This document shows positions 18,644 through 63,732 of a stretch of 64,000 nt of DNA, one piece after another. Source of the DNA: Gemmatimonadota bacterium. Its GTDB lineage: Bacteria > Gemmatimonadota > Gemmatimonadetes > Gemmatimonadales > GWC2-71-9. The stretch covers positions 806-64,805 of the forward strand of contig QHTZ01000066.1 of assembly GCA_003221005.1 (NCBI GenBank). Direction: 5' to 3'. Positions within the stretch are counted from its first letter, which is position 1; each line of letters begins with the position of its first letter. The notes under the pieces are model-generated. The model was not told where the DNA came from. It searched no databases and saw only the letters and a list, made by a program, of their open reading frames with translations. The position numbers were made by a program, and so were the translations under genes.

Positions 18644-18647
18644 GACC

Positions 18648-18773
18648 GGGAGACGGGATGCGGGAAACGGGAAGCGGCCCCCCTCCCTTCTACCGTGTCG
18701 GCCCGACTCCGCCGTCACGTGTCACAGGATCACAAAACCCGTTTCTCGTTTCCCGTTTCCCGCCTCCCGCTTC
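18648..18773. repeat. inverted arrays of GGGRRRC heptads (element a)
   Basis: G-arm 18648-18677: GGGAGAC GGGATGC GGGAAAC GGGAAGC GG. C-arm 18738-18773: CCC GTTTCTC GTTTCCC GTTTCCC GCCTCCC GCTTC. GCGGGAAACGGGAAGCG pairs 16/17 with CGTTTCCCGTTTCCCGC. The spacer is about 60 nt. Confidence 0.85.
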
Positions 18774-19311: not shown

Positions 19312-19964
19312 CCTTCTGGCTCGCCGGACCTGAACGGCGCGTGCTGCGCGCGATCGCCGCGCGCATCCCGCTGCGCTGGCGCCCCAACCATTTCACGGTC
19401 CTCGGCGTCCTCGCGGCGACCGGCGCGGGCGCCGCGTACGCGCTGGCCCGGCACGGCGCCGGGTGGCTGTGGGCGGCGAGCGCGCTGCTCGTGGTCCAAT
19501 GGCTCGGGGATAGCCTGGACGGCACGCTGGCGCGCGTCCGCAACGTAGAGCGCCCGCGCTACGGCTACTACCTCGATCACATGACCGACGCGTACTCGAC
19601 AGCCGTCATCGGGGCCGGCATCGGCTTGTCGCACTACGTCCACCTGGGACTGGCGCTGGCGCTGGTGGTGCTCTACCTCGGCCTCTCGATCAACGTGTAC
19701 CTCGAGTCGCAGGTGCTGGGCCGCTTTCAATTGGGGTACGGCCGCGTCGGCCCCACAGAGGCCCGGATCGTGTTGATCGGGTTGAACACGGCCCTGGCGC
19801 TATACCGCGAGGTCCCCGAAGGCGCGTGGACCGCGCTCACGTCGGTGGAGAACGTGGTGACCGCGCTGCTCGTGGTGGGCTTGCTGGGCCTGCTCGTGGC
19901 CCGGTTCGCGCGGAACGTGAGCGTGCTCGCCAAGCTGGAGCCACAGTTCAAGAAGAACGTGTAG
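19287..19964 (+). CDS. CDP-alcohol phosphatidyltransferase family protein
   Basis: 225 aa. Signature D-x2-DG-x2-AR-x8-G-x3-D-x3-D present as DSLDGTLARVRNVERPRYGYYLDHMTD. Confidence 0.75.
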   Translation: MATPTRELTFWLAGPERRVLRAIAARIPLRWRPNHFTVLGVLAATGAGAAYALARHGAGWLWAASALLVVQWLGDSLDGTLARVRNVERPRYGYYLDHMTDAYSTAVIGAGIGLSHYVHLGLALALVVLYLGLSINVYLESQVLGRFQLGYGRVGPTEARIVLIGLNTALALYREVPEGAWTALTSVENVVTALLVVGLLGLLVARFARNVSVLAKLEPQFKKNV

Positions 19965-19965
19965 C

Positions 19966-20029
19966 GGGACACGGGAAACGGGAAACGTCCGTCGCCTCAC
20001 GTTTCCCCTTTCCCCTTTCCCGTTTCCCG
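19966..20029. repeat. heptad hairpin (element b), probable terminator
   Basis: GGGACAC GGGAAAC GGGAAAC G, 12-nt loop, then C GTTTCCC CTTTCCC CTTTCCC GTTTCCC G. Followed by GTAGAGTTTTCTCTC. Lies directly after the stop at 19962-19964. Confidence 0.85.
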
Positions 20030-20044
20030 TAGAGTTTTCTCTCC

Positions 20045-31587: not shown

Positions 31588-32685
31588 TCAGTATCTGATC
31601 CCCGCCTTCTCCGCGTACGCGCGGATCGCCGCTTGCTCCTCCGGTGTGAGGTGCTCGGGGATCGCGACATGGACCTCGACATACTGATCGCCCCGGCGGC
31701 CGTTCTTCTCGATGCCCTGGCCCGCAATCCGGAACCTCTGGCCGTGCTGCGTGCCGGGTGGAACCCGCAGCACGATGTGACGGCCGGCCAGCGTTTTCAC
31801 CTTGATCTTCGAGCCCAGCATCGCCTGGGCCACGTTGATGGGCACGACGCAAATCACGTCGAGCCCCTCCCGCCGGAAGAACCGGTCGGGCTCGACATGA
31901 AACACCACAACGACGTCCCCGCGCCCCCTCGTACCCTGACCCTTGAGCCGCACGCGCGTGCCGTCCTCGGTCCCCGGCGGCACCGTGATCATCAAGCGCT
32001 TCTCGACCCGCACCTCCCCCTCGCCCTGGCATGTCGGGCACCGCTGGGAGGGCACCTTGCCCTTGCCGCGGCACACGGGACAGGGACGGGTCACCGCGAA
32101 GCTCCCCTGGCCGAACGAAATCGTTCCGCGCCCTTTGCACTCGGGACACGTCGAGATCGTCGCGCCCGGCGCCGCCCCGTTGCCGCCGCACGTCGGGCAG
32201 ACCTCGCTCACGGGCAGCGTGACGGGAACTTTGCCCCCCAAGGCGGCCACGCGGAACGGAATCGAGACTGCGGCCTCGACCTCCTCGTCCGCCTCGACCT
32301 CACTGTCCGGGCCGCGCCGGCCGAAGATCGAGGAGAAGAGATCGCCGAGCCCGCCGAACGACCCGAGGTCCGAAAGGTCGAAGTCAGCGCTGAAGCCACC
32401 GGCTCCCCCCGGCCCACCGGGCCCCCCGTACCCCTTACCTCCCGCACCGCTTCCCGCGAACGCTCCGTAGCGGCGCAGCTGGTCGTACTTCTTGCGCTGT
32501 TCGGCGTCGCTCAACACGTCGTGCGCCTCGCTGATCTCCTTGAAGCGCTCGGCCGCCTGCGGATTGTTGGGGTTACGGTCGGGGTGGTATTGCTTGGCAA
32601 GACGGCGAAACGCCTTCTTGATTTCGTCGGTGGTCGCCGTCTCGGACACGCCCAAGGTCTGGTAGTAATCCCGCTGCGCTGGCAT
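31588..32685 (-). CDS. dnaJ: molecular chaperone DnaJ
   Basis: 365 aa. J-domain with HPD (YHPDRN), G/F-rich region, four CxxCxGxG zinc-finger repeats. Confidence 0.95.
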   Translation of the reverse strand: MPAQRDYYQTLGVSETATTDEIKKAFRRLAKQYHPDRNPNNPQAAERFKEISEAHDVLSDAEQRKKYDQLRRYGAFAGSGAGGKGYGGPGGPGGAGGFSADFDLSDLGSFGGLGDLFSSIFGRRGPDSEVEADEEVEAAVSIPFRVAALGGKVPVTLPVSEVCPTCGGNGAAPGATISTCPECKGRGTISFGQGSFAVTRPCPVCRGKGKVPSQRCPTCQGEGEVRVEKRLMITVPPGTEDGTRVRLKGQGTRGRGDVVVVFHVEPDRFFRREGLDVICVVPINVAQAMLGSKIKVKTLAGRHIVLRVPPGTQHGQRFRIAGQGIEKNGRRGDQYVEVHVAIPEHLTPEEQAAIRAYAEKAGIRY

Positions 32686-33285
32686 TTACCCCTCTCCCGT
32701 CCCCCGTCCCTCTTCCCCGCCCCATGTGAGTACCTGAACGCGTGCCGGCCGGATCAGCATGTCGCCGAGCTTGTATCCGGCCTGAAGCACCGCCCCCACA
32801 GTGTGGTCCTGGGACGGATCAGACGCAGCTGCAGTGGTCACGGCCTCGTGCAAGTTCGGGTCGAACGCGACGCCCACCTCATCCACCCGGCGGACGCCTG
32901 CCGCCTCGAGCTCCTTGCGGAGCTTCCGCTCCACCAGATCGACGCCGTCATGAATCGTCTTCGCGTCCGTCGCGGCCGGATCCACATGAGCGAAACGCGC
33001 CAAATCGTCCAGCGCGTCAACCAGCCGGGCCAGCAGATCAGCTTGAGCTTTAGTCCACAGCTCGGTGCGCTCGCGGCTGCTGCGCTTGCGGAAGTTGTCG
33101 TACTCGGCCGCGAGCCGCAGGTAGCGGTCGTTAAGCTCCGCAAGCTGGTCCTCGAGCCGCGGTGCGGTCACCGCCGCTGGCTCGACTCCAGCCGCTGCGG
33201 CGCCGGACTCGGAATCCGGCGGCGCCGTGCTCGCGTCCGGCTGCTCGGTCGGCCGCGCGTCGCGTTGGTGTTTCTTGTCGGTCAT
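32686..33285 (-). CDS. grpE: nucleotide exchange factor GrpE
   Basis: ATG 33285 (MTDKKHQ). LRLAAEYDNFRKR and FDPNLHEAV motifs. The stop abuts the dnaJ start. The last 12 codons (WGGEEGRGTGEG) are encoded by a heptad-repeat arm. Confidence 0.9.
   Translation of the reverse strand: MTDKKHQRDARPTEQPDASTAPPDSESGAAAAGVEPAAVTAPRLEDQLAELNDRYLRLAAEYDNFRKRSSRERTELWTKAQADLLARLVDALDDLARFAHVDPAATDAKTIHDGVDLVERKLRKELEAAGVRRVDEVGVAFDPNLHEAVTTAAASDPSQDHTVGAVLQAGYKLGDMLIRPARVQVLTWGGEEGRGTGEG
32689..32723. repeat. solo GGGGACG-type heptad arm (element e) inside the grpE 3' end
   Basis: Plus strand CCCCTCTCCCGTCCCCCGTCCCTCTTCCCCGCCCC. Its complement contains a 21-mer, GGGGAAGAGGGACGGGGGACG, identical to 49228-49248. 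Confidence 0.85.
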
Positions 33286-38324: not shown

Positions 38325-39980
38325 CTACTCCAGCAGCTCGAGGTCGAGCGCGTCCACGGCGGCGTTGAGACTGGCATCGCTGGCGCGCAATTGCGTGAGC
38401 CGCTCAGCCCGCGCCGCGTCCTCGGTGAGCCGGACGGGGCGCGGCCGGGGCGCCGCGCCGCTCGCCGGACCGGCGAACGCGACGCGCGCCGGCACCGTTA
38501 AATATCGTCCGACCAGCTGCACCAGCGCGTCGCGCTGGCGCTCGATGCCTTGCGCGTGGACAGCGTTGTCCTCAAGCAACCGGATGGTGACGGTTGTCCC
38601 CTCGACCGCTGCCACTTCGGTCGCCGCGAGGAGCGCGCCGAGCAGCTGACTCTGCGCGCGCGCGTCGGCGACCACGCGAGGCCACAGGGCGCGGAGGCGA
38701 TCGAGCGTCAACGAACCCTGTTCGGGGACGGGGGACGTGGGACGGGGGACGGGTGGGGTCCCCGGACTGGGCGCCGCATCGCGCAACTGGACGGGGGCAG
38801 CCGCGGTGCGACCAGCACCACTCGTCCCCCGTCCCCCCTCCCCCGTCCCACCGCCCAATGCTCTTATGACCTCTTCCAGCTCGACCGTGCGACTCATCAT
38901 CGCCCAGCGGAGCAGCAGCACTTCGACGGCGAGGCGCATGTTGCCGCTCGCGCGCAGCGGCACCTCCGTTTCGCTCAACACCGTGAGCATCCGGACGACG
39001 TCCGGCGGCGGGAGAGCGGGGGCGTAGCGCCGCACAAGGCCCTGCAGGCCTTCCGTCAGGCCCTCGGGCTCGCCGCCCATCCCCACGACCAGCACGGCCC
39101 GGAGGGTCTCGCCGGCGCCACTCACGAATTCGCCCAGGTCGGCCCCCGCCTCCGTCAACCGGTCCACCAGCGCGAACACGGCCGGCGCATCCCGCTCGGC
39201 CACGAGGCGCAGCATCTCCCCGTAGAGCTCGTCGGGGATCAGCCCCAGCACCTCGCGCACGCGCGCGACGGTCACGGGGCCTTCGCCGAACGAGAGCACC
39301 TGGTCGAGGAGCGAGAGCCCGTCGCGCATGCCCCCGTCCGCGCTCTTCGCGATGAGGTGGAGCGCGTCCTCGTCTGCGGCCAGACCCTCGGCTGCGAGCA
39401 CGTGCTTCAGGCGCTCGACGATGGCGTGCGGGCCGATGCGGCGGAAGTCGAAGCGCTGCAGCCGTGACAGGATCGGGGCCGCGCTCTGCGCGATCTTCTG
39501 CGGCTCGGTCGTCGCAAACACGAACACCACCCGCGACGGCGGCTCCTCCAGGATCTTGAGGAGCGCGTTCCACGCCTCGCGCGTGAGCATGTGCGCCTCG
39601 TCCACGATGTAGACCTTGAAGCCCGCCTCGGTGCTCGCAGCGTACATGGCGCGCTCCCGCAGGTCGCGGGCGTCGTCCACGCCGCGGTTGGACGCCGCAT
39701 CGAGCTCCACGACGTCGAGGTTGACCGCCCCACCCCAGATCCGTCTGCACGAGTCGCACTCCCCACACGGCTCGCCCGCCGCCGAGCGACGCTCGCAATT
39801 GAGTGCCATCGCGAGGATGCGCGCGGCCGTGGTCTTGCCCACGCCGCGGGGGCCGGCGAACAGGTACCCGTGCGCCACCCGGTTCTGGGCGACGGCGCCA
39901 CGCAGCGCGGCGGCGACGTGGTCCTGGACGATGAGGTCAGCGAACTGCTTGGGGCGGTACTTCCTCGCGAGCGCGATCAT
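38325..39980 (-). CDS. dnaX: DNA polymerase III subunit tau/gamma
   Basis: ATG 39980 (MIALARKYRPKQF). Walker A GPRGVGKTT, zinc module CGECDSC, Walker B VYIVDEAHML, SRLQRF sensor. The linker after domain III contains a complete heptad element. Confidence 0.9.
   Translation of the reverse strand: MIALARKYRPKQFADLIVQDHVAAALRGAVAQNRVAHGYLFAGPRGVGKTTAARILAMALNCERRSAAGEPCGECDSCRRIWGGAVNLDVVELDAASNRGVDDARDLRERAMYAASTEAGFKVYIVDEAHMLTREAWNALLKILEEPPSRVVFVFATTEPQKIAQSAAPILSRLQRFDFRRIGPHAIVERLKHVLAAEGLAADEDALHLIAKSADGGMRDGLSLLDQVLSFGEGPVTVARVREVLGLIPDELYGEMLRLVAERDAPAVFALVDRLTEAGADLGEFVSGAGETLRAVLVVGMGGEPEGLTEGLQGLVRRYAPALPPPDVVRMLTVLSETEVPLRASGNMRLAVEVLLLRWAMMSRTVELEEVIRALGGGTGEGGRGTSGAGRTAAAPVQLRDAAPSPGTPPVPRPTSPVPEQGSLTLDRLRALWPRVVADARAQSQLLGALLAATEVAAVEGTTVTIRLLEDNAVHAQGIERQRDALVQLVGRYLTVPARVAFAGPASGAAPRPRPVRLTEDAARAERLTQLRASDASLNAAVDALDLELLE
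38724..38856. repeat. complete inverted heptad element (element f) inside the dnaX coding sequence
   Basis: G-arm 38724-38758: GGGGACGGGGGACGTGGGACGGGGGACGGGTGGGG. C-arm 38823-38856: CGTCCCCCGTCCCCCCTCCCCCGTCCCACCGCCC. The spacer is 64 nt. Translated in frame as GGGTGEGGRGTS...PPVPRPTSPVP. Confidence 0.85.
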
Positions 39981-40008
39981 CTCCAGGAATTTAACGCGGG
40001 CGCGCCCC

Positions 40009-41556
40009 CTACGGGCGCGGGCACTGCGACTGCCGGAATTGCCGCTCCGCGGCGTCGACGGACGCTCGCTGCGCCCGTTCACGGGACACGCGACCAGCGT
40101 CCAGTGCGCCGCGCACGGCGGCGCGCTGCACGCCGTAGGCCACGAGCCGGCGCTCGACGGCGATGATGCCGCGCCCCAGGCTGGGGCAGTCGAGCTGGCG
40201 CTTGTCGTAGAGCCGTGCCCGGTCGTCGTAGTTGCGCACGGCCTGTGCGAGCGAGTCGGCGAGTGCGTCGAGCCGCGCGAGCGCGGGACTCGCGGGCACG
40301 GTGGTGGCGTGTGGAAGCTGCAGCGTTTGCCGGGCGCGCGACGCCAGCTCTTCGCCGCGGCGCAGCAACTGCGGAGGTAGCCCGAACCGCCAATAGTACA
40401 GGGCTCCCCCGACTCCGCCCAGCACGACGAGCCCGAGGACGGCGACCCGGCCCCAGCGGCGCCGCTTGCGTCGCGGGATCGCGGCCGGGGCGGTGCGGCG
40501 TGAGGTGGGCGTCGGCGCGGCCGGCTGGCGCCAGGCCGCGGCCTGCTGGCGCCGCGGCAGCGGGGGCAGGGGCGGGGGCGCGGGCGGGGCGGGCGGGGCC
40601 GGCGGGGGCGGGGGCGGGGGCGGCCACTGTGAAGGCGCAGGCGTGTGACGGCTCAGCATGTCGTCCGCAGCGCTCAGAAACCGCAGCTCGTTCCGGTCGT
40701 CAGGCTCTTCCTCGCGCTCCTCTGGTTCCTCCTCGCGCTCCTCTGGTTCCTCCTCCCGCTCCTCTGGTTCCTCCTCCCGCTCCTCTGGTTCCTCATCGCG
40801 CTCTTCGGGCTCCTCATCGCGCTCTTCGGGCGCCGCGACCGGAGGGGGAGGCGCTGGACGCCGCGGGGGCGGCGGGATAGCGTCCTGGCGCGGCACGCTC
40901 ATGACTCGCGTTGTCCGGTCGGACACGGCGTTGAATGCCCGGTAATTCTTCCACACGACGTAGGAACGCTTCTTCCCGCCTTCGCCCAGCGACTCGTCTT
41001 TCAGCACCTCGTAGAACGGCAGGCACGTCGCCGCCCAGCTCTCGTCCCCTCCCGACCGGTAGAATCCGGCCGCGGGCTCTCCCTCCGCGGTTCCGATGAC
41101 CACGGCCACCTGCCAGGGCTCCGTGAAGTAGCGTTCGTGCGTCTCCACGTCGTAGGAGGAGAGCTCGATGCCGAGGTCCTGGTGCGTGTGGTACCACCCC
41201 AGCAGGCGGCGGCCGGCCTTCTTCACCTCGGCGCGGACCCGATCCCACAACGCCTTGACGACGATCGTGGTGCGGTCACCCTGCACAGGTTGTGTGACCC
41301 GGATCAACGAGCCCACGAGGATGTAGCGGGTCGCGGTGTCGGGGGTCTGGCACAGGTCGCCGACCAGGAAACCGAGCAGACTCTTCTCGGGCGCCGAGCC
41401 GGCGTGCTCGCGCAGGGCGGCCACCGCCGCCTGCGCGACAAAGATGGAATCGGGGATCAGTCCGGTGCCGCCGCCCCCGCCTTCGACTCCAGGCTTCCAG
41501 AGGATGGAGCGATCCAGCGGGAGCGGCTGGTGGAGGAGATCCGGCCCCTCGAGCAT
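40009..41556 (-). CDS. membrane-anchored JAMM/MPN-domain protein with acidic heptad repeats and a proline-rich linker
   Basis: 515 aa. N-terminal MPN domain with an intact JAMM motif (E..., GWYHTHQDLGIELSSYD = HxHx7SxxD). Then 6 x PEER(D/E)EE, a poly-Pro run, one TM helix (VAVLGLVVLGGVGGALYYW) and a C-terminal helical domain. Confidence 0.6.
   Translation of the reverse strand: MLEGPDLLHQPLPLDRSILWKPGVEGGGGGTGLIPDSIFVAQAAVAALREHAGSAPEKSLLGFLVGDLCQTPDTATRYILVGSLIRVTQPVQGDRTTIVVKALWDRVRAEVKKAGRRLLGWYHTHQDLGIELSSYDVETHERYFTEPWQVAVVIGTAEGEPAAGFYRSGGDESWAATCLPFYEVLKDESLGEGGKKRSYVVWKNYRAFNAVSDRTTRVMSVPRQDAIPPPPRRPAPPPPVAAPEERDEEPEERDEEPEEREEEPEEREEEPEEREEEPEEREEEPDDRNELRFLSAADDMLSRHTPAPSQWPPPPPPPPAPPAPPAPPPLPPLPRRQQAAAWRQPAAPTPTSRRTAPAAIPRRKRRRWGRVAVLGLVVLGGVGGALYYWRFGLPPQLLRRGEELASRARQTLQLPHATTVPASPALARLDALADSLAQAVRNYDDRARLYDKRQLDCPSLGRGIIAVERRLVAYGVQRAAVRGALDAGRVSRERAQRASVDAAERQFRQSQCPRP
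40705..40830. repeat. 6 x 21-bp tandem repeat (encodes PEER[D/E]EE)
   Basis: Six consecutive 21-nt units, TTCCTCCTC(G/C)CGCTCCTCTGG and variants. Units occur as near-identical adjacent pairs. Confidence 0.9.
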
Positions 41557-47681: not shown

Positions 47682-48143
47682 CTACGTGACCACCTGGATT
47701 TGCTTCTCGTCCAACCGGCGCTTGAATGCGTGGAGCAGGCTGACGGCGCGCGCCAAGCCGGAGGCGGGCATCCCTTCGATCGCCCGCGCGGCAAGGCGCC
47801 GCTCCCGCTGCCCGGCGCGCAGCAGCGTTTCCAGTCCGCGGCGCGTGAGCGTCACCCGCACCCCGCGGTCGTCCTCCGGGTCGGGGGTCGTCTCCACAAA
47901 CCCCTTCGCCTCGAGCCGCTGGATGAACGTGGTCGCCGCCGCCCGGGACACCCCCAGCTGCTCCGCCACATCTTTGGGCCGGGCCCCGCCGGGCCCCCCC
48001 TCGTCCACCGCGCAGAGCGCCTGATGAGCGCGGTGGGACAAGCCGTACGAGTGGAACGCGCGATCCGTGGACCGCCCCACGGCGGCGTGAGCGCCGGCGA
48101 CGGCGGCGGCAAGCTGCAGCGCGAGCTCGGAGCGGTCAGCCAT
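47682..48143 (-). CDS. MarR-family transcriptional regulator
   Basis: 153 aa. Winged-helix segment (PKDVAEQLGVSRAATTFIQRLEAKGFVE..DPEDDRGVRVTLT). Confidence 0.8.
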   Translation of the reverse strand: MADRSELALQLAAAVAGAHAAVGRSTDRAFHSYGLSHRAHQALCAVDEGGPGGARPKDVAEQLGVSRAAATTFIQRLEAKGFVETTPDPEDDRGVRVTLTRRGLETLLRAGQRERRLAARAIEGMPASGLARAVSLLHAFKRRLDEKQIQVVT

Positions 48144-48177
48144 CAGCCGTCAGCGATGAGCCGTCAGTTGCGGCGAA

Positions 48178-48222
48178 GGTTAACATATTGATGATTAATA
48201 TACTAATTAGAAACATGCCGCT
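48178..48222 (-). promoter_or_regulatory. AT-rich marR promoter/operator region
   Basis: The only strongly AT-rich stretch in the window (GGTTAACATATTGATGATTAATATACTAATTAGAAACATG). Contains the 12/14 palindrome ATTAATATACTAAT (48194-48207) and TATATT/TATTAA -10-like hexamers on the minus strand. Confidence 0.5.
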
Positions 48223-49221: not shown

Positions 49222-49291
49222 GGGACGGGGGAAGAGGGACGGGGGACGAGTGGCACGACGCCACCCGTCCCACTTCCCCCGTCCCCGTCTC
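49222..49291. repeat. GGGGACG-type heptad hairpin (element d), bidirectional terminator candidate
   Basis: GGGACGG GGGAAGA GGGACGG GGGACGA G, inner mini-hairpin TGGCACGACGCCA, then CCCGTCCCACTTCCCCCGTCCCCGTCTC. Fills the whole gap between convergent genes. Confidence 0.85.
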
Positions 49292-60881: not shown

Positions 60882-62314
60882 GAGTCCAGCTCCGCTACCT
60901 GTCAGGCGCCCGCGCCGGACAGGTGGAGGTCTTCCGCAAGGCCTACATCGGGCTGGGCCGGCATCCGCTTTCAGACGCGCGCTTCGACGCCGAGCGCGAC
61001 CTCGATGTCTCCTCGCGCCACGCCGCCATCATCCGCCAGGGCGACAGGTTCATCCTGCGCGACCTCGGCAGCAAGAACGGCACCCTCGTCAACGGACGCC
61101 TCGTTGCGGCTGACCTGCCGATCAAGGACGGCGACGTGATCGGATTCGGCGCGCAGGGACCTTCGGTCGAATTTCACGTGCTCGAGGCCGACGCCCGAGA
61201 GGACGTTTCCGCCGCGGCGCACGCCTCCGCGGCGCGGATCTCATCCCCGCGCGATCAGTTCCAGGCCGTCCCTCCAACCCCCGCGCCGGCTCGCTCGAGT
61301 ACGGCGGCCCGCATCGCGACCGAAGTGCAGCATCAGACGCGGCACCTGCGGCGCACCACCAAGGTGCTGCTTGTGCTGCTGCTCGCGAGTGTAGCCGGCT
61401 TCACGTGGGTGCAGTGGCGGAGCGCCCGAAACGCGCGCGAGATCGTCAGCCTCCAGGCGCGAGCCGACAGCCTGAACGTCGCGGCCCAACAGCTGCTGAC
61501 CCGGCTGCAGTCCGAACTCCAGAGCCTGCGCGATGCGCTGCGGCAGTCCCAACTCGAGGTGGCCCACCTGCGGAGCGAGCTCGCTGCCGCCGGCGCGAGC
61601 GGCGACCCGACGTCGGTCGCCCGCCTGCGCGCCGAGCTAGCCTCAGCCGAAACGCGGCAACGGGGCATCGCCGACGCTGCGACGGTGGACTACCGTGCCA
61701 TCTCGCACCACAACGCCGACGCGGTCGCGCTGCTGGAGGTGAAGTTCTCCGACGTTGAAGTGTTCAGCAGCACCGCCTTCGCCATCGACTCGCAGGGCAC
61801 CCTGGTGACCAACCGGCACGTGCTCGTGGGTGAGGAAGGCAATCGCCGGCCCCTCGCCATCGCCGTCAAGTTCTCGGGGAGCAAGCAATGGTTCCGGGGG
61901 CGGATCGTCGGCGTGTCGGACTCGGCCGACATCGGAGTGCTCAAGGTCGAGATTCGGGGCGGCACGCCTCGCGTCACCGGCCTCGCGGCAGGCCCGGAGA
62001 GCGTGCAACGGGGCGACCCCGTGGCCATCATCGGCTACCCGCTCGGGGAAGACCTCCCGATGGAGCGGCAGGGCCTGAGCGCCATCGCCGATCCCACGCT
62101 CACCGTCGGAACCGTGAGCAAGGTGTTGCACGCGGTGGTCCAGGTGGACGGGTACGGCGCGCCGGGATCATCGGGGAGTCCGGTCTTCGGCCGGGACGGC
62201 CGCGTGGTGGCGGTGCTCTATGGTGGCGAGCGTGAATCGCAGGGGAAGATCATCTACGCGGTTCCCGCCAGTGCGGTCGCGGAGTGCTTGAGGCGGCTTC
62301 AGGCGATCCACTGA
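60878..62314 (+). CDS. FHA domain - TM - coiled coil - trypsin-like serine protease fusion
   Basis: 478 aa. FHA core (GLGRHP..SSRHAAI..DLGSKNGT), TM (VLLVLLLASVAGFTWV), coiled coil, and an S1 protease triad context (TNRHV, DIGVLKV, GSSGSPV). Confidence 0.8.
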   Translation: MRVQLRYLSGARAGQVEVFRKAYIGLGRHPLSDARFDAERDLDVSSRHAAIIRQGDRFILRDLGSKNGTLVNGRLVAADLPIKDGDVIGFGAQGPSVEFHVLEADAREDVSAAAHASAARISSPRDQFQAVPPTPAPARSSTAARIATEVQHQTRHLRRTTKVLLVLLLASVAGFTWVQWRSARNAREIVSLQARADSLNVAAQQLLTRLQSELQSLRDALRQSQLEVAHLRSELAAAGASGDPTSVARLRAELASAETRQRGIADAATVDYRAISHHNADAVALLEVKFSDVEVFSSTAFAIDSQGTLVTNRHVLVGEEGNRRPLAIAVKFSGSKQWFRGRIVGVSDSADIGVLKVEIRGGTPRVTGLAAGPESVQRGDPVAIIGYPLGEDLPMERQGLSAIADPTLTVGTVSKVLHAVVQVDGYGAPGSSGSPVFGRDGRVVAVLYGGERESQGKIIYAVPASAVAECLRRLQAIH

Positions 62315-63732
62315 AGGACGCGTCTCGCCGCCGCGCGCTGCATCAGCGGCTGCCCGTGCCAGCAGCACAGGATCGCAGCGTCCCCGGGGATTTGCGCGAC
62401 GAGCCGCGGGTGGGCGAACAAGACGACGAGCGCGGCTCCGGGCGCGAGCCGCCGCAGCGCGCGGAGCGAGCGCGCACCCAGGTCGGCCCGCCCCTTCCAC
62501 GACCGTGGCTCGGCGTAGACGAGCACCACCCTCGTCCCCCGTCCCCCGACCCCCGTTCCCACACCGTGCTCACGTAGCTCCCGCGCGAAGATATCCCGCG
62601 GCCCGACGACGTATGGCCCCCCGACGTCATCATCCACGATCGACACCGCGAGCGGAGCTCGGATCACGAGAGTCGTGCCGCGCACCAGACGCATCACCCG
62701 ATCGGCCAGCCCGTCGGCGAATGCGGCGTGGCCCGCGAGATCAGGCTCCCCCTGATCGGGCCCGCGGTCCCACGACGCGGCCGCGCGCTCGCAGCGCGCG
62801 AGCGCCTCGTCGGCCCGCGCGGTGGGGATGACGCTTCCCACCGCGCGATCGAGCGCCCGCACCACGGAGGCAAAGTCCTCCGGATAGAGGAGCGCGTCGC
62901 ACCCGGCCGCGACGGCCGTTGCCGTCGCGGGCGCCTCCCGCTCGCTCGCCGTAGCCCCGGCCATGATGAGGGCGTCGGTCACGACGAGTCCGGAGAAGGC
63001 GAGCGTGTCGCGCAAGGCCCCGAGGATCACGGGCGAGAACGAGGCGGCGCGCCCGCTCGGGTCCCACCCGGGGTAGGCGACGAAGGCGCTCATCACGCTC
63101 CCGACTCCGGCGCGGACGGCGGCCGCAAAGGGCGCGAGGTCGGACTGCTCGAGCTCCGCGAGAGGCGCGGTGACGCGGGGCAGCACCGCATGCGAGTCCT
63201 GCGTGGTGCGGCCGTGCCCGGGATAGTGCTTGGCGCACGCCAGGACGCCGTGTTCCTGGCAGCCACGGATCCAGGCGACGGCGTGCTCGCCGACGAGGCT
63301 GGGGTCGGCGCCGAACGAGCGCGTCTGCACGATCGGATTCCGGGGCTCGGCGTCGAGGTCGCACACCGGGGCGAACGCCCAGTTCACGCCTACCGAGCGA
63401 GCTTCCGTCCCGGAGATGACGCCGGCCGTATGGGTCGTCTCGACGTCCCCCAGGTCCCCGAGCGCGGCGGGCGGGGGCAGCTCCGTAAGGCCGCCGACCT
63501 GCTGCGCCGCTCCGCGCTCCAGGTCAGCGCCGATGAGCAGCGGACGAGCGGCCGCACGGCGCAGCTCGGCCGTGAGCGCGGTGACCGACTCGCGGTCGCC
63601 GCCGAACAGGATGAAGCCGCCCACGCCGGCCGCGAGCGCCGCGTCGATCTTGGCGTGCTCGTGCGCGAAGCCGCCGTGCGCGGGCCGCGAGCGCAGCGAG
63701 GGGAAGACCAGCCGCGCGAGCGACGCGCTCAT
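62299..63732 (-). CDS. nagZ: beta-N-acetylhexosaminidase (GH3, NagZ-like)
   Basis: 477 aa. KHYPGHGRTTQDSH and VVTDAL motifs. The C-terminal extension contains a heptad-repeat-encoded GVGTGVGGRGT segment. Confidence 0.8.
   Translation of the reverse strand: MSASLARLVFPSLRSRPAHGGFAHEHAKIDAALAAGVGGFILFGGDRESVTALTAELRRAAARPLLIGADLERGAAQQVGGLTELPPPAALGDLGDVETTHTAGVISGTEARSVGVNWAFAPVCDLDAEPRNPIVQTRSFGADPSLVGEHAVAWIRGCQEHGVLACAKHYPGHGRTTQDSHAVLPRVTAPLAELEQSDLAPFAAAVRAGVGSVMSAFVAYPGWDPSGRAASFSPVILGALRDTLAFSGLVVTDALIMAGATASEREAPATATAVAAGCDALLYPEDFASVVRALDRAVGSVIPTARADEALARCERAAASWDRGPDQGEPDLAGHAAFADGLADRVMRLVRGTTLVIRAPLAVSIVDDDVGGPYVVGPRDIFARELREHGVGTGVGGRGTRVVLVYAEPRSWKGRADLGARSLRALRRLAPGAALVVLFAHPRLVAQIPGDAAILCCWHGQPLMQRAAARRVLQWIA
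62531..62563. repeat. solo GGGGACG-type heptad arm (element g) inside nagZ
   Basis: CTCGTCCCCCGTCCCCCGACCCCCGTTCCCAC. The first 17 nt are identical to 38821-38837 in dnaX. Confidence 0.85.

Follow-up and report, generated by a model that had tools for sequence, protein, structure and literature searches.

A co-varying tandem-repeat hairpin in the dnaX linker of Gemmatimonadales and the class of repeats to which it may belong

Known dnaX signals and the linker element

DnaX is essential, and elsewhere its short form, gamma, is made by three unrelated routes, all at the boundary between domains III and IV (bioRxiv 10.1101/2022.11.10.516041). The signals for gamma and the full-length tau differ: E. 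coli dnaX uses a −1 frameshift with a downstream stem-loop, Thermus uses transcriptional slippage, and Caulobacter uses partial proteolysis by ClpXP (PMC5009743). Caulobacter gamma arises when ClpXP halts at a Gly-rich tract lying between domains III and IV (PMC6677533). Here, we describe a hairpin built of short tandem repeats that is translated in frame at this same boundary in dnaX of a soil bacterium from the order Gemmatimonadales (Gemmatimonadota), within a 64,000-nucleotide (nt) stretch of contig QHTZ01000066.1 (positions 806 to 64,805; the whole stretch is referred to as the window). What the locus shares with the known gamma/tau signals is a structure in the nucleic acid, together with a Gly-rich tract, lying precisely where domains III and IV meet. 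Unlike the E. coli and Thermus signals, the window dnaX has no slippery site, A-run or nearby alternative-frame stop. As for proteolytic gamma in Caulobacter, the Gly-rich tract adjoins the folded domain III, with any processing here being putative.

Paired arrays of short G-rich repeats have also been described. Rehm et al. (2015; PMC4692102) reported convergent G-rich heptamers: GGGAATC in Xanthomonas and GGGGA(C/T)T, also called short tandemly repeated repetitive (STRR) sequences, in Nostoc. Xanthomonas has 70–75 cases per genome of opposite-strand arrays able to form a stem-loop, and the heptamers of both genera lie mostly within ~50 nt of the ends of open reading frames (ORFs), being only occasionally intragenic (PMC4692102).

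In Gemmatimonadales, about half of the sampled dnaX orthologues carry a hairpin at the linker site, the arms of the hairpin co-vary, and the linker is swapped between genomes as a unit. The dnaX segment is probably, though by no means certainly, the resident copy of a hairpin class that occurs across Gemmatimonadales: a passenger built of repeats and a hot spot for recombination. The parts of the element in the window are as follows.

38325..39980, minus strand: dnaX (tau) coding sequence, 551 amino acids from the ATG at 39980, from the ORF list and Pfam.
38712..38855, minus strand: dnaX inter-domain linker, 48 amino acids, residues 376–423, from the orthologue alignment.
38818..38856, minus strand: 5′ arm in the mRNA, G-rich heptads (GGGACGG GGGAGGG GGGACGG GGGACGA GTGG), encoding GGGTGEGGRGTSG and adjoining domain III.
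38757..38817, minus strand: spacer or hairpin loop, encoding ...AGRTAAAPVQLRDAAPSPGT..., with the LRD codons at 38778–38786.
38724..38756, minus strand: 3′ arm in the mRNA, C-rich heptads, encoding PPVPRPTSPVP.

The Pfam matches of DnaX are DNA_pol3_delta2, DNAX_ATPase_lid, DNA_pol3_gamma3 (residues 236–374) and DnaX_C (421–518). Because DNA_pol3_gamma3 ends at 374 and DnaX_C starts at 421, the element takes up essentially all of the linker that joins clamp-loader domain III to the tau C-terminal domain; the linker peptide is GGGTGEGGRGTSGAGRTAAAPVQLRDAAPSPGTPPVPRPTSPVPEQGS. In the mRNA, the G-rich arm comes first and the C-rich arm second; GGGTGEGGRGTSGAG directly follows ...EEVIRAL, and Gly makes up 57% of the first 14 linker residues. 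The initial annotation had placed both GGGGACG-type arms in the dnaX frame after domain III, encoding these peptides, and coordinates, frame and Pfam all agree with that placement.

Tandem Repeats Finder reports, on the plus strand, 4.3 copies of GGGGACG at 38724–38753 and 3.9 copies of CGTCCCC at 38823–38849, with 90%–91% matches. Each dnaX arm has about four GGGGACG-type heptads, translated in frame. The best inverted repeat pairs 32-nt arms (38725–38756 and 38818–38849) that are 91% complementary and 61 nt apart, and the mRNA is predicted to fold into a single long hairpin (−109 kcal/mol over 181 nt, z = −4.3). These features exceed what chance provides. With up to two mismatches, GGGGACGGGGGACG matches the window 23 times compared with 3.7 expected, a number reached by none of 100 shuffles. 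The inverted repeat scores 23 compared with 8.1 ± 1.3 for linkers in which the codons were shuffled so as to preserve amino-acid and codon content, and 0 of 200 such shuffles reach 23. Gly codons in the linkers are also shifted to GGG and GGA, with GGC accounting for 28% compared with 52% in the remaining dnaX. The linker peptides derive from the repeat DNA and not the reverse.

The arms have a close relative in the window, an intergenic hairpin at 49222. The dnaX left arm and inner junction (GGGACGGGGGAnGnGGGACGGGGGACGAGTGG) are identical to it at 30 of 32 nt, and the shared sequence extends into the junction, which is not itself repetitive; this junction, GACGAGTGG, is common to the window dnaX, the orthologue at locus L102 and the 49222 copy. 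Since the arms match intergenic copies even at the non-repeat junction, they are repeat DNA first and coding sequence second. The spacer of the dnaX element is unrelated to that of the 49222 copy, so that only the arms and junction are held in common.

The mechanical dnaX ORF spans 38325..40082 on the minus strand, reaching up to a GTG at 40082; the likely start is the ATG at 39980 and not this GTG. The sequence TAAATT lies 7 nt before the ATG, and the upstream gene has its stop at 40012. A −10-like box 7–8 nt before the dnaX ATG reads TAAATT in the window (within 39981–40011) and TAGATT in relatives, which suggests a leaderless dnaX transcript.

Variation and exchange of the linker among relatives

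A total of 160 dnaX loci were gathered, 80 from species-representative genomes and 80 from metagenomes, and 157 of these were aligned. The 148 distinct linkers were divided into a close clade (at least 65% identity to the window; 94 linkers) and a distant clade (54 linkers), and a linker repeat was called significant if its inverted-repeat score was reached by no more than 1 of 200 codon shuffles. The window has a G+C content of 70%, the dnaX relatives all belong to Gemmatimonadales, and the best dnaX match among the species-representative genomes is 77% identical at the protein level. In DNA, a contig from a soil metagenome (L081) is 98.6% identical to the window; its hairpin is identical, and so uninformative about micro-evolution.

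All orthologues have a linker, ranging from 72 to 288 nt, and linkers without arms are of comparable length. The linker is therefore permissive and hypervariable, which bears out the earlier suggestion that the segment is tolerated in a disordered linker. An alignment of the orthologues had been proposed as a way to recognize a ~45-residue insertion, and it reveals no clean insertion or deletion. A significant inverted repeat is found in 75 of the 148 distinct linkers (66/94 in the close clade and 9/54 in the distant clade). The arms have a period of 7 in 42 of the hairpin-bearing linkers and a period of 8 in 27, and a G-rich arm lies 5′ in 74 of the 75, none of which has a C-rich 5′ arm. Arm units vary by lineage and include GGGGACG, GGGGAAG, GGGGACA, CGGGATG, CGGGAGG, GTCGGACA, GGCGGACC, GCGGATCG and CGGGCAGG, among others.

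Despite this variety, the two arms of a linker match each other. A left arm scores better with its own right arm than with foreign ones (mean 13.1 compared with 7.8), and the own partner ranks in the top 10% for 78 of 147 linkers. RNAalifold, applied to 22 sequences, finds 13 consensus pairs, 9 of which have changes on both sides; the alignment of periodic arms is ambiguous, so this result is only supporting evidence. Third-position identity outside the linker is 0.45–0.56 between the window and orthologues with 68%–80% protein identity. A 27-nt run of the arm is nonetheless identical in locus L137, despite third-position divergence elsewhere in dnaX.

The spacer is conserved in a different way. 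The hairpin loop encodes the motif (V/Q)LRD(A/V)AP, which is present in 76 of 148 linkers and in both major clades; of the 57 significant hairpins with the motif, 50 carry it in the loop, and it is also found in 19 linkers without a significant repeat. The LRD codons vary synonymously (for example, CTC AGG GAC compared with TTG CGC GAT), so the motif is conserved as a peptide, and the spacer is ancestral coding sequence. A comparison of DNA-level with protein-level conservation therefore gives a split answer, with the arms conserved as DNA and the spacer as peptide with varied synonymous codons. A homologous segment that is conserved as protein and not built of heptads, named in the initial annotation as evidence against an insertion, does exist, and it is the spacer, not the arms.

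The linker is also exchanged between near-identical genomes. Outside the cassette, loci L002 and L089 are the same at all but 2 of 5,458 nt; within it, 83 of 196 alignment columns differ. Four more pairs have swapped linkers (L148/L152, L096/L109, L107/L122 and L112/L136). The divergent tract starts 9–28 nt before the linker and ends around the PEKGP codons, after which the flanks are identical; the exchanged cassette is ~150–230 nt in size. The final codons of domain III fall within the tract and carry synonymous changes, which indicates that the donors were other dnaX alleles. Among the 12 pairs with four-fold-site divergence below 0.08, six have saturated linker divergence (at least 0.28), and in most of the others the linker difference is about equal to that at neutral sites, making the pattern bimodal. 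There are also islands of identity. In L009/L115 the linker differs by 4% compared with 36% at four-fold sites, and in L093/L099 identity is 97%–100% from −60 to +90 nt compared with 75%–88% in the flanks. Misassembly is an unlikely source of the swaps because both flanks match perfectly for kilobases and the pattern is seen again in assemblies made independently. Whole-tract replacement by recombination explains both the swaps and the identity islands. Gradual hypermutation was rejected as an alternative, as it accounts for neither.

A class of tandem-repeat hairpins beyond dnaX

A scan for inverted repeats covered 1.18 Mb, comprising the window and all of the loci. It returned 128 strong inverted repeats, 111 of which have tandem-repeat arms, with a period of 7 in 77, 8 in 33 and 9 in one. 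Fifty-five of these tandem-repeat hairpins are in the dnaX linker and 56 are elsewhere; 50 of the latter 56 are G-first, a count that overstates the number of independent cases because most of the 56 represent one orthologous site, next to ffs. The G-first polarity is the same on both strands, and so is a property of the element and not of the direction of transcription. Unit families are common to coding and non-coding sites and are shared between genomes. The gene caller used was crude, and merges or misses genes, so the labels of hairpins as intergenic or coding are approximate.

The tandem-repeat type accounts for all three of the strongest inverted repeats in the window, and the intergenic hairpins there begin 1–10 nt past stop codons. 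Copies in the window other than that in dnaX are listed here.

49222..49291, no strand assigned: intergenic hairpin of the dnaX-arm family that takes up exactly the interval between two convergent genes.
62528..62560, minus strand: single G-rich array of the dnaX-arm family, translated as GVGTGVGGRGTRV in a gene resembling glycoside hydrolase family 3 (GH3)/NagZ (62299..63732).
32689..32718, minus strand: single G-rich array of the dnaX-arm family, encoding the GrpE C-terminal tail GGEEGRGTGEG, followed by the stop.
19964..20031, no strand assigned: hairpin of a second heptad family, CGGGAAA / TTTCCCG, beginning directly after a stop codon.
18647..18773, no strand assigned: hairpin of the CGGGAAA/CGGGATG family, beginning a few nt past a stop codon.

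The predicted folds are strong: −52.7 and −56 kcal/mol on the two strands for the hairpin at 49222..49291 (z about −6), and −72.6 kcal/mol for that at 18647..18773 (z = −6.0). The family of the hairpin at 19964 recurs in the dnaX linker arm of relative L090 (GGGACACGGGAAACGGGAA). The GrpE tail reads ...LTWGGEEGRGTGEG and then a TAA stop, abutting the dnaJ ATG at 32685. Among 120 orthologues of the GH3/NagZ-like protein, the array falls in a hypervariable loop of 10–14 residues, at the same site and with repeat-like peptides such as GKGETGKGKR, GTGDGGRGTG and VQRATRNVQR. This site appears to be another long-lived coding repeat site. An origin of the nagZ array by insertion was rejected, given that the loop is equal in length in the orthologues, with no clean insertion or deletion.

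In most relatives, though not in the window, the signal recognition particle (SRP) RNA (RF00169) lies just upstream of dnaX, and a tandem-repeat hairpin is found after the SRP RNA gene, before it, or on both sides. Examples include L090 (1866–2073), L113, L045, L007, L104, L001, L041 and L136 (5755–5977), among others. In one clade (L136, L155, L139, L010 and L050), arms of AATGATC units flank the SRP core; L020, L156 and L016 then score as the large SRP RNA (RF01854). The class sits where the hairpins of transcript 3′ ends and terminators sit, and from this position such a role is most likely its native job. Two further inverted repeats depart from the usual form. One, at L137 6612–6723, is a perfect 38-nt inverted repeat with arms 36 nt apart, downstream of dnaX and without tandem structure; the other is a conserved C-first hairpin (GGCCTCACCCCCTGTCCCCC... 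/ ...GGGGGTGAGGCC) at L013 2054–2188 and L019 7256–7443, a rare exception to the G-first rule.

Other features of the window include an AT-rich island (ttaacatattgatgattaatatactaattagaaacat) at 48170–48215, which adjoins a period-7 array (AGCCGTC/AGCCATC) at 48131–48167, and a 21-nt tandem repeat at 40709–40824, with 5.5 copies and 93% matches, that encodes (EEREEEP)n in gene 40012..41556 (minus strand). The product of this gene is a JAB/MPN-domain protein with long Pro-rich stretches.

Explanations and comparison with described systems

How might such an element arise and persist? Each member of the class would consist of two inverted arms built from tandem units of 7 or 8 nt, the G-rich one being 5′ whichever strand is read. 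In dnaX, the arms would flank the ancestral LRD motif, with arms and motif together forming the disordered linker that connects domain III with the tau C-terminal domain and the arms being read as Gly-rich and Pro-rich low-complexity stretches. The element would act at the nucleic-acid level and not as a recoding signal. Complementarity may be maintained in several ways: by homogenization of the tandem repeats within arms, by templating or conversion, either from arm to arm or involving copies elsewhere in the genome, and by recombination among dnaX alleles, which a long hairpin may well trigger through breaks or stalled replication. Locus L104 offers an example of homogenization, with three CGGGAGG units in one arm and an opposite arm that still complements CGGGATG. 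DnaX would tolerate the element because the linker presumably needs only flexibility and the LRD motif.

Several points weigh against this interpretation, beyond the non-independence of the polarity count. The link between hairpin and recombination is itself inferred. The donor of any swapped cassette was not found among 158 loci, where there are only partial identity islands. The terminator role proposed for the class rests on position, there being no U-tract after the stems. In some pairs, the linker DNA evolves more slowly than neutral sites, which could mean that the hairpin has a selected function in dnaX. Lastly, ~30% of close relatives have no significant repeat, so whatever maintains the hairpin is not absolute.

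The initial annotation read the whole 133-nt element as an insertion, and a mobile palindromic repeat, akin to a MITE (miniature inverted-repeat transposable element) or a Rickettsia palindromic element, could have entered the linker recently, complete, and been tolerated there. In keeping with this, the arms and junction match the 49222 copy at nearly every position, the family also occurs in nagZ and grpE, and the linker is permissive and turns over quickly between close strains. The repeat origin of the arms stands; the insertion of a complete element into ancestral sequence does not. There is no presence/absence indel among 158 orthologues, the arms lie at the same boundaries in 75 of 148 linkers, and no target-site duplication or flanking direct repeat is visible at either edge of the dnaX element. 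Moreover, the spacer is not common to the other copies and encodes a conserved motif that is also found without arms, and the synonymous changes to domain III in the swapped tracts point to dnaX alleles as donors, not to an intergenic element. For the element as a whole, recent insertion thus appears largely refuted, and we regard it as improbable. An even smaller probability attaches to a by-product of selection on the protein, in which a Gly-rich stretch followed by a Pro-rich stretch would be self-complementary because GGN and NCC codons pair. The arms do encode such peptides, and Gly makes up 33% of the first 14 residues in hairpin-bearing linkers compared with 20% in others. This explanation is refuted by the shuffles of the same codons, which abolish the repeat (0/200). 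It also fails to account for arms of GTCGGACA or GCGGATCG units, which do not code for Gly or Pro and are equally complementary, for the identical arms in non-coding copies, or for a codon choice that is atypical for dnaX.

Whether the hairpin serves dnaX expression is a separate matter. At the gamma/tau boundary it could be a selected signal, working as a terminator within the gene, as a site of pausing or as an RNase III-type stem, that would lower tau or give a gamma-like product, and the Gly-rich tract could stall ClpXP as in Caulobacter. We consider this unlikely, though well worth weighing. The hairpin sits exactly at the domain III/IV boundary, is kept with co-varying arms across a family in which neutral sites are saturated, and has linker DNA that is more conserved than four-fold sites in some pairs; the same class occurs at transcript ends, including right after SRP RNA, and the 5′ arm would, by analogy with Caulobacter, encode a suitable Gly-rich tract adjoining domain III. 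Set against this, stem mismatches of the G·U type (27) show no excess over those of the A·C type (23), which gives no hint that the sense RNA in particular is under selection. The dnaX stem lacks a trailing U-tract, and a scan with a consensus intrinsic terminator made no call on the hairpin; the downstream T fraction is 0.14 for dnaX copies and 0.32 for non-dnaX hairpins, compared with a background of 0.16, and the enrichment after non-dnaX hairpins is partly due to TAGATT promoter-like boxes. A product from an mRNA lacking a stop codon would normally be tagged and degraded. Finally, the repeat is absent from ~30% of close and 83% of distant relatives, and this patchy distribution places a selected signal below the passenger/hot-spot explanation. 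A more specific proposal is that the hairpin splits dnaX expression, ending or cutting some transcripts as its intergenic relatives would, while the Gly-rich tract stops ClpXP at domain III, leading to a gamma-like subunit. This is a long shot; if true, it would be a fourth way to make gamma, and the cassette exchange would reflect selection or drive on the signal.

The G-rich arm might instead form a G-quadruplex in the mRNA or in non-template DNA, as previously suggested for this segment. The window arm does contain the motif, with at least four tracts of three or more G separated by short loops, and the related Xanthomonas and Nostoc heptamer repeats form quadruplexes in vitro (PMC4692102). 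The generality of the suggestion does not hold, as only 43 of 75 hairpin-bearing linkers have such a motif; with a complementary arm always present and a predicted duplex that is very stable, a quadruplex is very improbable. Programmed recoding, whether by −1 frameshifting as in E. coli or transcriptional slippage as in Thermus, with the hairpin as stimulator, has next to no probability. The position in the gene is that of the E. coli signal, which underlay the hint of gamma-type recoding in the initial annotation, and there is a formal in-frame G GGG GGA heptamer in the window. This heptamer lies inside the stem and not upstream of it, and only 7 of 158 orthologues have it. Across the 158 orthologues, no X XXY YYZ slippery heptamer is conserved, and none has an A-run of at least 7 of the Thermus type. 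In the window, the −1 frame runs for 94 codons before its first stop, and across orthologues the distance to this stop is scattered between 1 and 220 codons. Rfam searches of the whole window (gathering threshold) and the dnaX region (E up to 5) returned only tRNA and chance microRNA-like hairpins, with no match to the DnaX frameshift element in the dnaX region.

What are the wider implications? A strong, co-varying hairpin of short tandem repeats lies at the dnaX domain III/IV boundary in this phylum, and the linker that bears it is among the most changeable pieces of the dnaX locus. This makes it a testable case of an essential gene harboring a repeat hairpin that may act as a hot spot for recombination or as a signal for expression. 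A literature search on hairpin repeats in Gemmatimonadetes and Gemmatimonas found nothing specific. The strongly polar tandem-repeat hairpin class of Gemmatimonadales, which appears to dominate the inverted repeats of the genomes scanned, may thus be previously undescribed.

The dnaX element appears akin to two kinds of known system, inverted pairs of heptamer repeats and in-frame palindromic repeats. Rickettsia palindromic elements and MITEs are inserted as discrete units that some orthologues have and others lack, and their copies are similar along the full length. Palindromic elements and MITEs in frame inside genes have been reviewed (PMC2229807), and MITEs are also described in Coxiella (PMC5896051). 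As with these elements, palindromic repeat DNA in dnaX is translated in a permissive part of the protein. Unlike them, the dnaX element shows no indel, its spacer is ancestral coding sequence, and only its arms are common to other copies. Repetitive extragenic palindromic (REP) sequences and REPINs are likewise hairpin-forming repeats at gene ends; they are species-specific and often form inverted doublets, with several families per genome (PMC3733652, PMC12306157). A REP arm consists of a single palindrome, imperfect and tagged with GTAG or CGTC, whereas the dnaX arms are tandem arrays of 7–8-nt units. The Xanthomonas and Nostoc heptamers, the nearest described counterpart, share with the Gemmatimonadales class the dispersed tandem 7-nt G-rich units, in at least three copies, the opposite-strand pairs that form a stem-loop, and the location near ORF ends. 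The units here are GGGGACG, CGGGAAA and many others, which differ from GGGAATC and GGGGAYT, making the class an analogue and not the same family. In contrast to the situation in Xanthomonas and Nostoc, many units, and periods of both 7 and 8, are found side by side in a genome and from one genome to another. In Gemmatimonadales the arrays are as a rule paired and G-first, and an in-frame copy occupies a conserved site of an essential gene and is exchanged as a cassette; none of these features has been reported for the Xanthomonas and Nostoc repeats.

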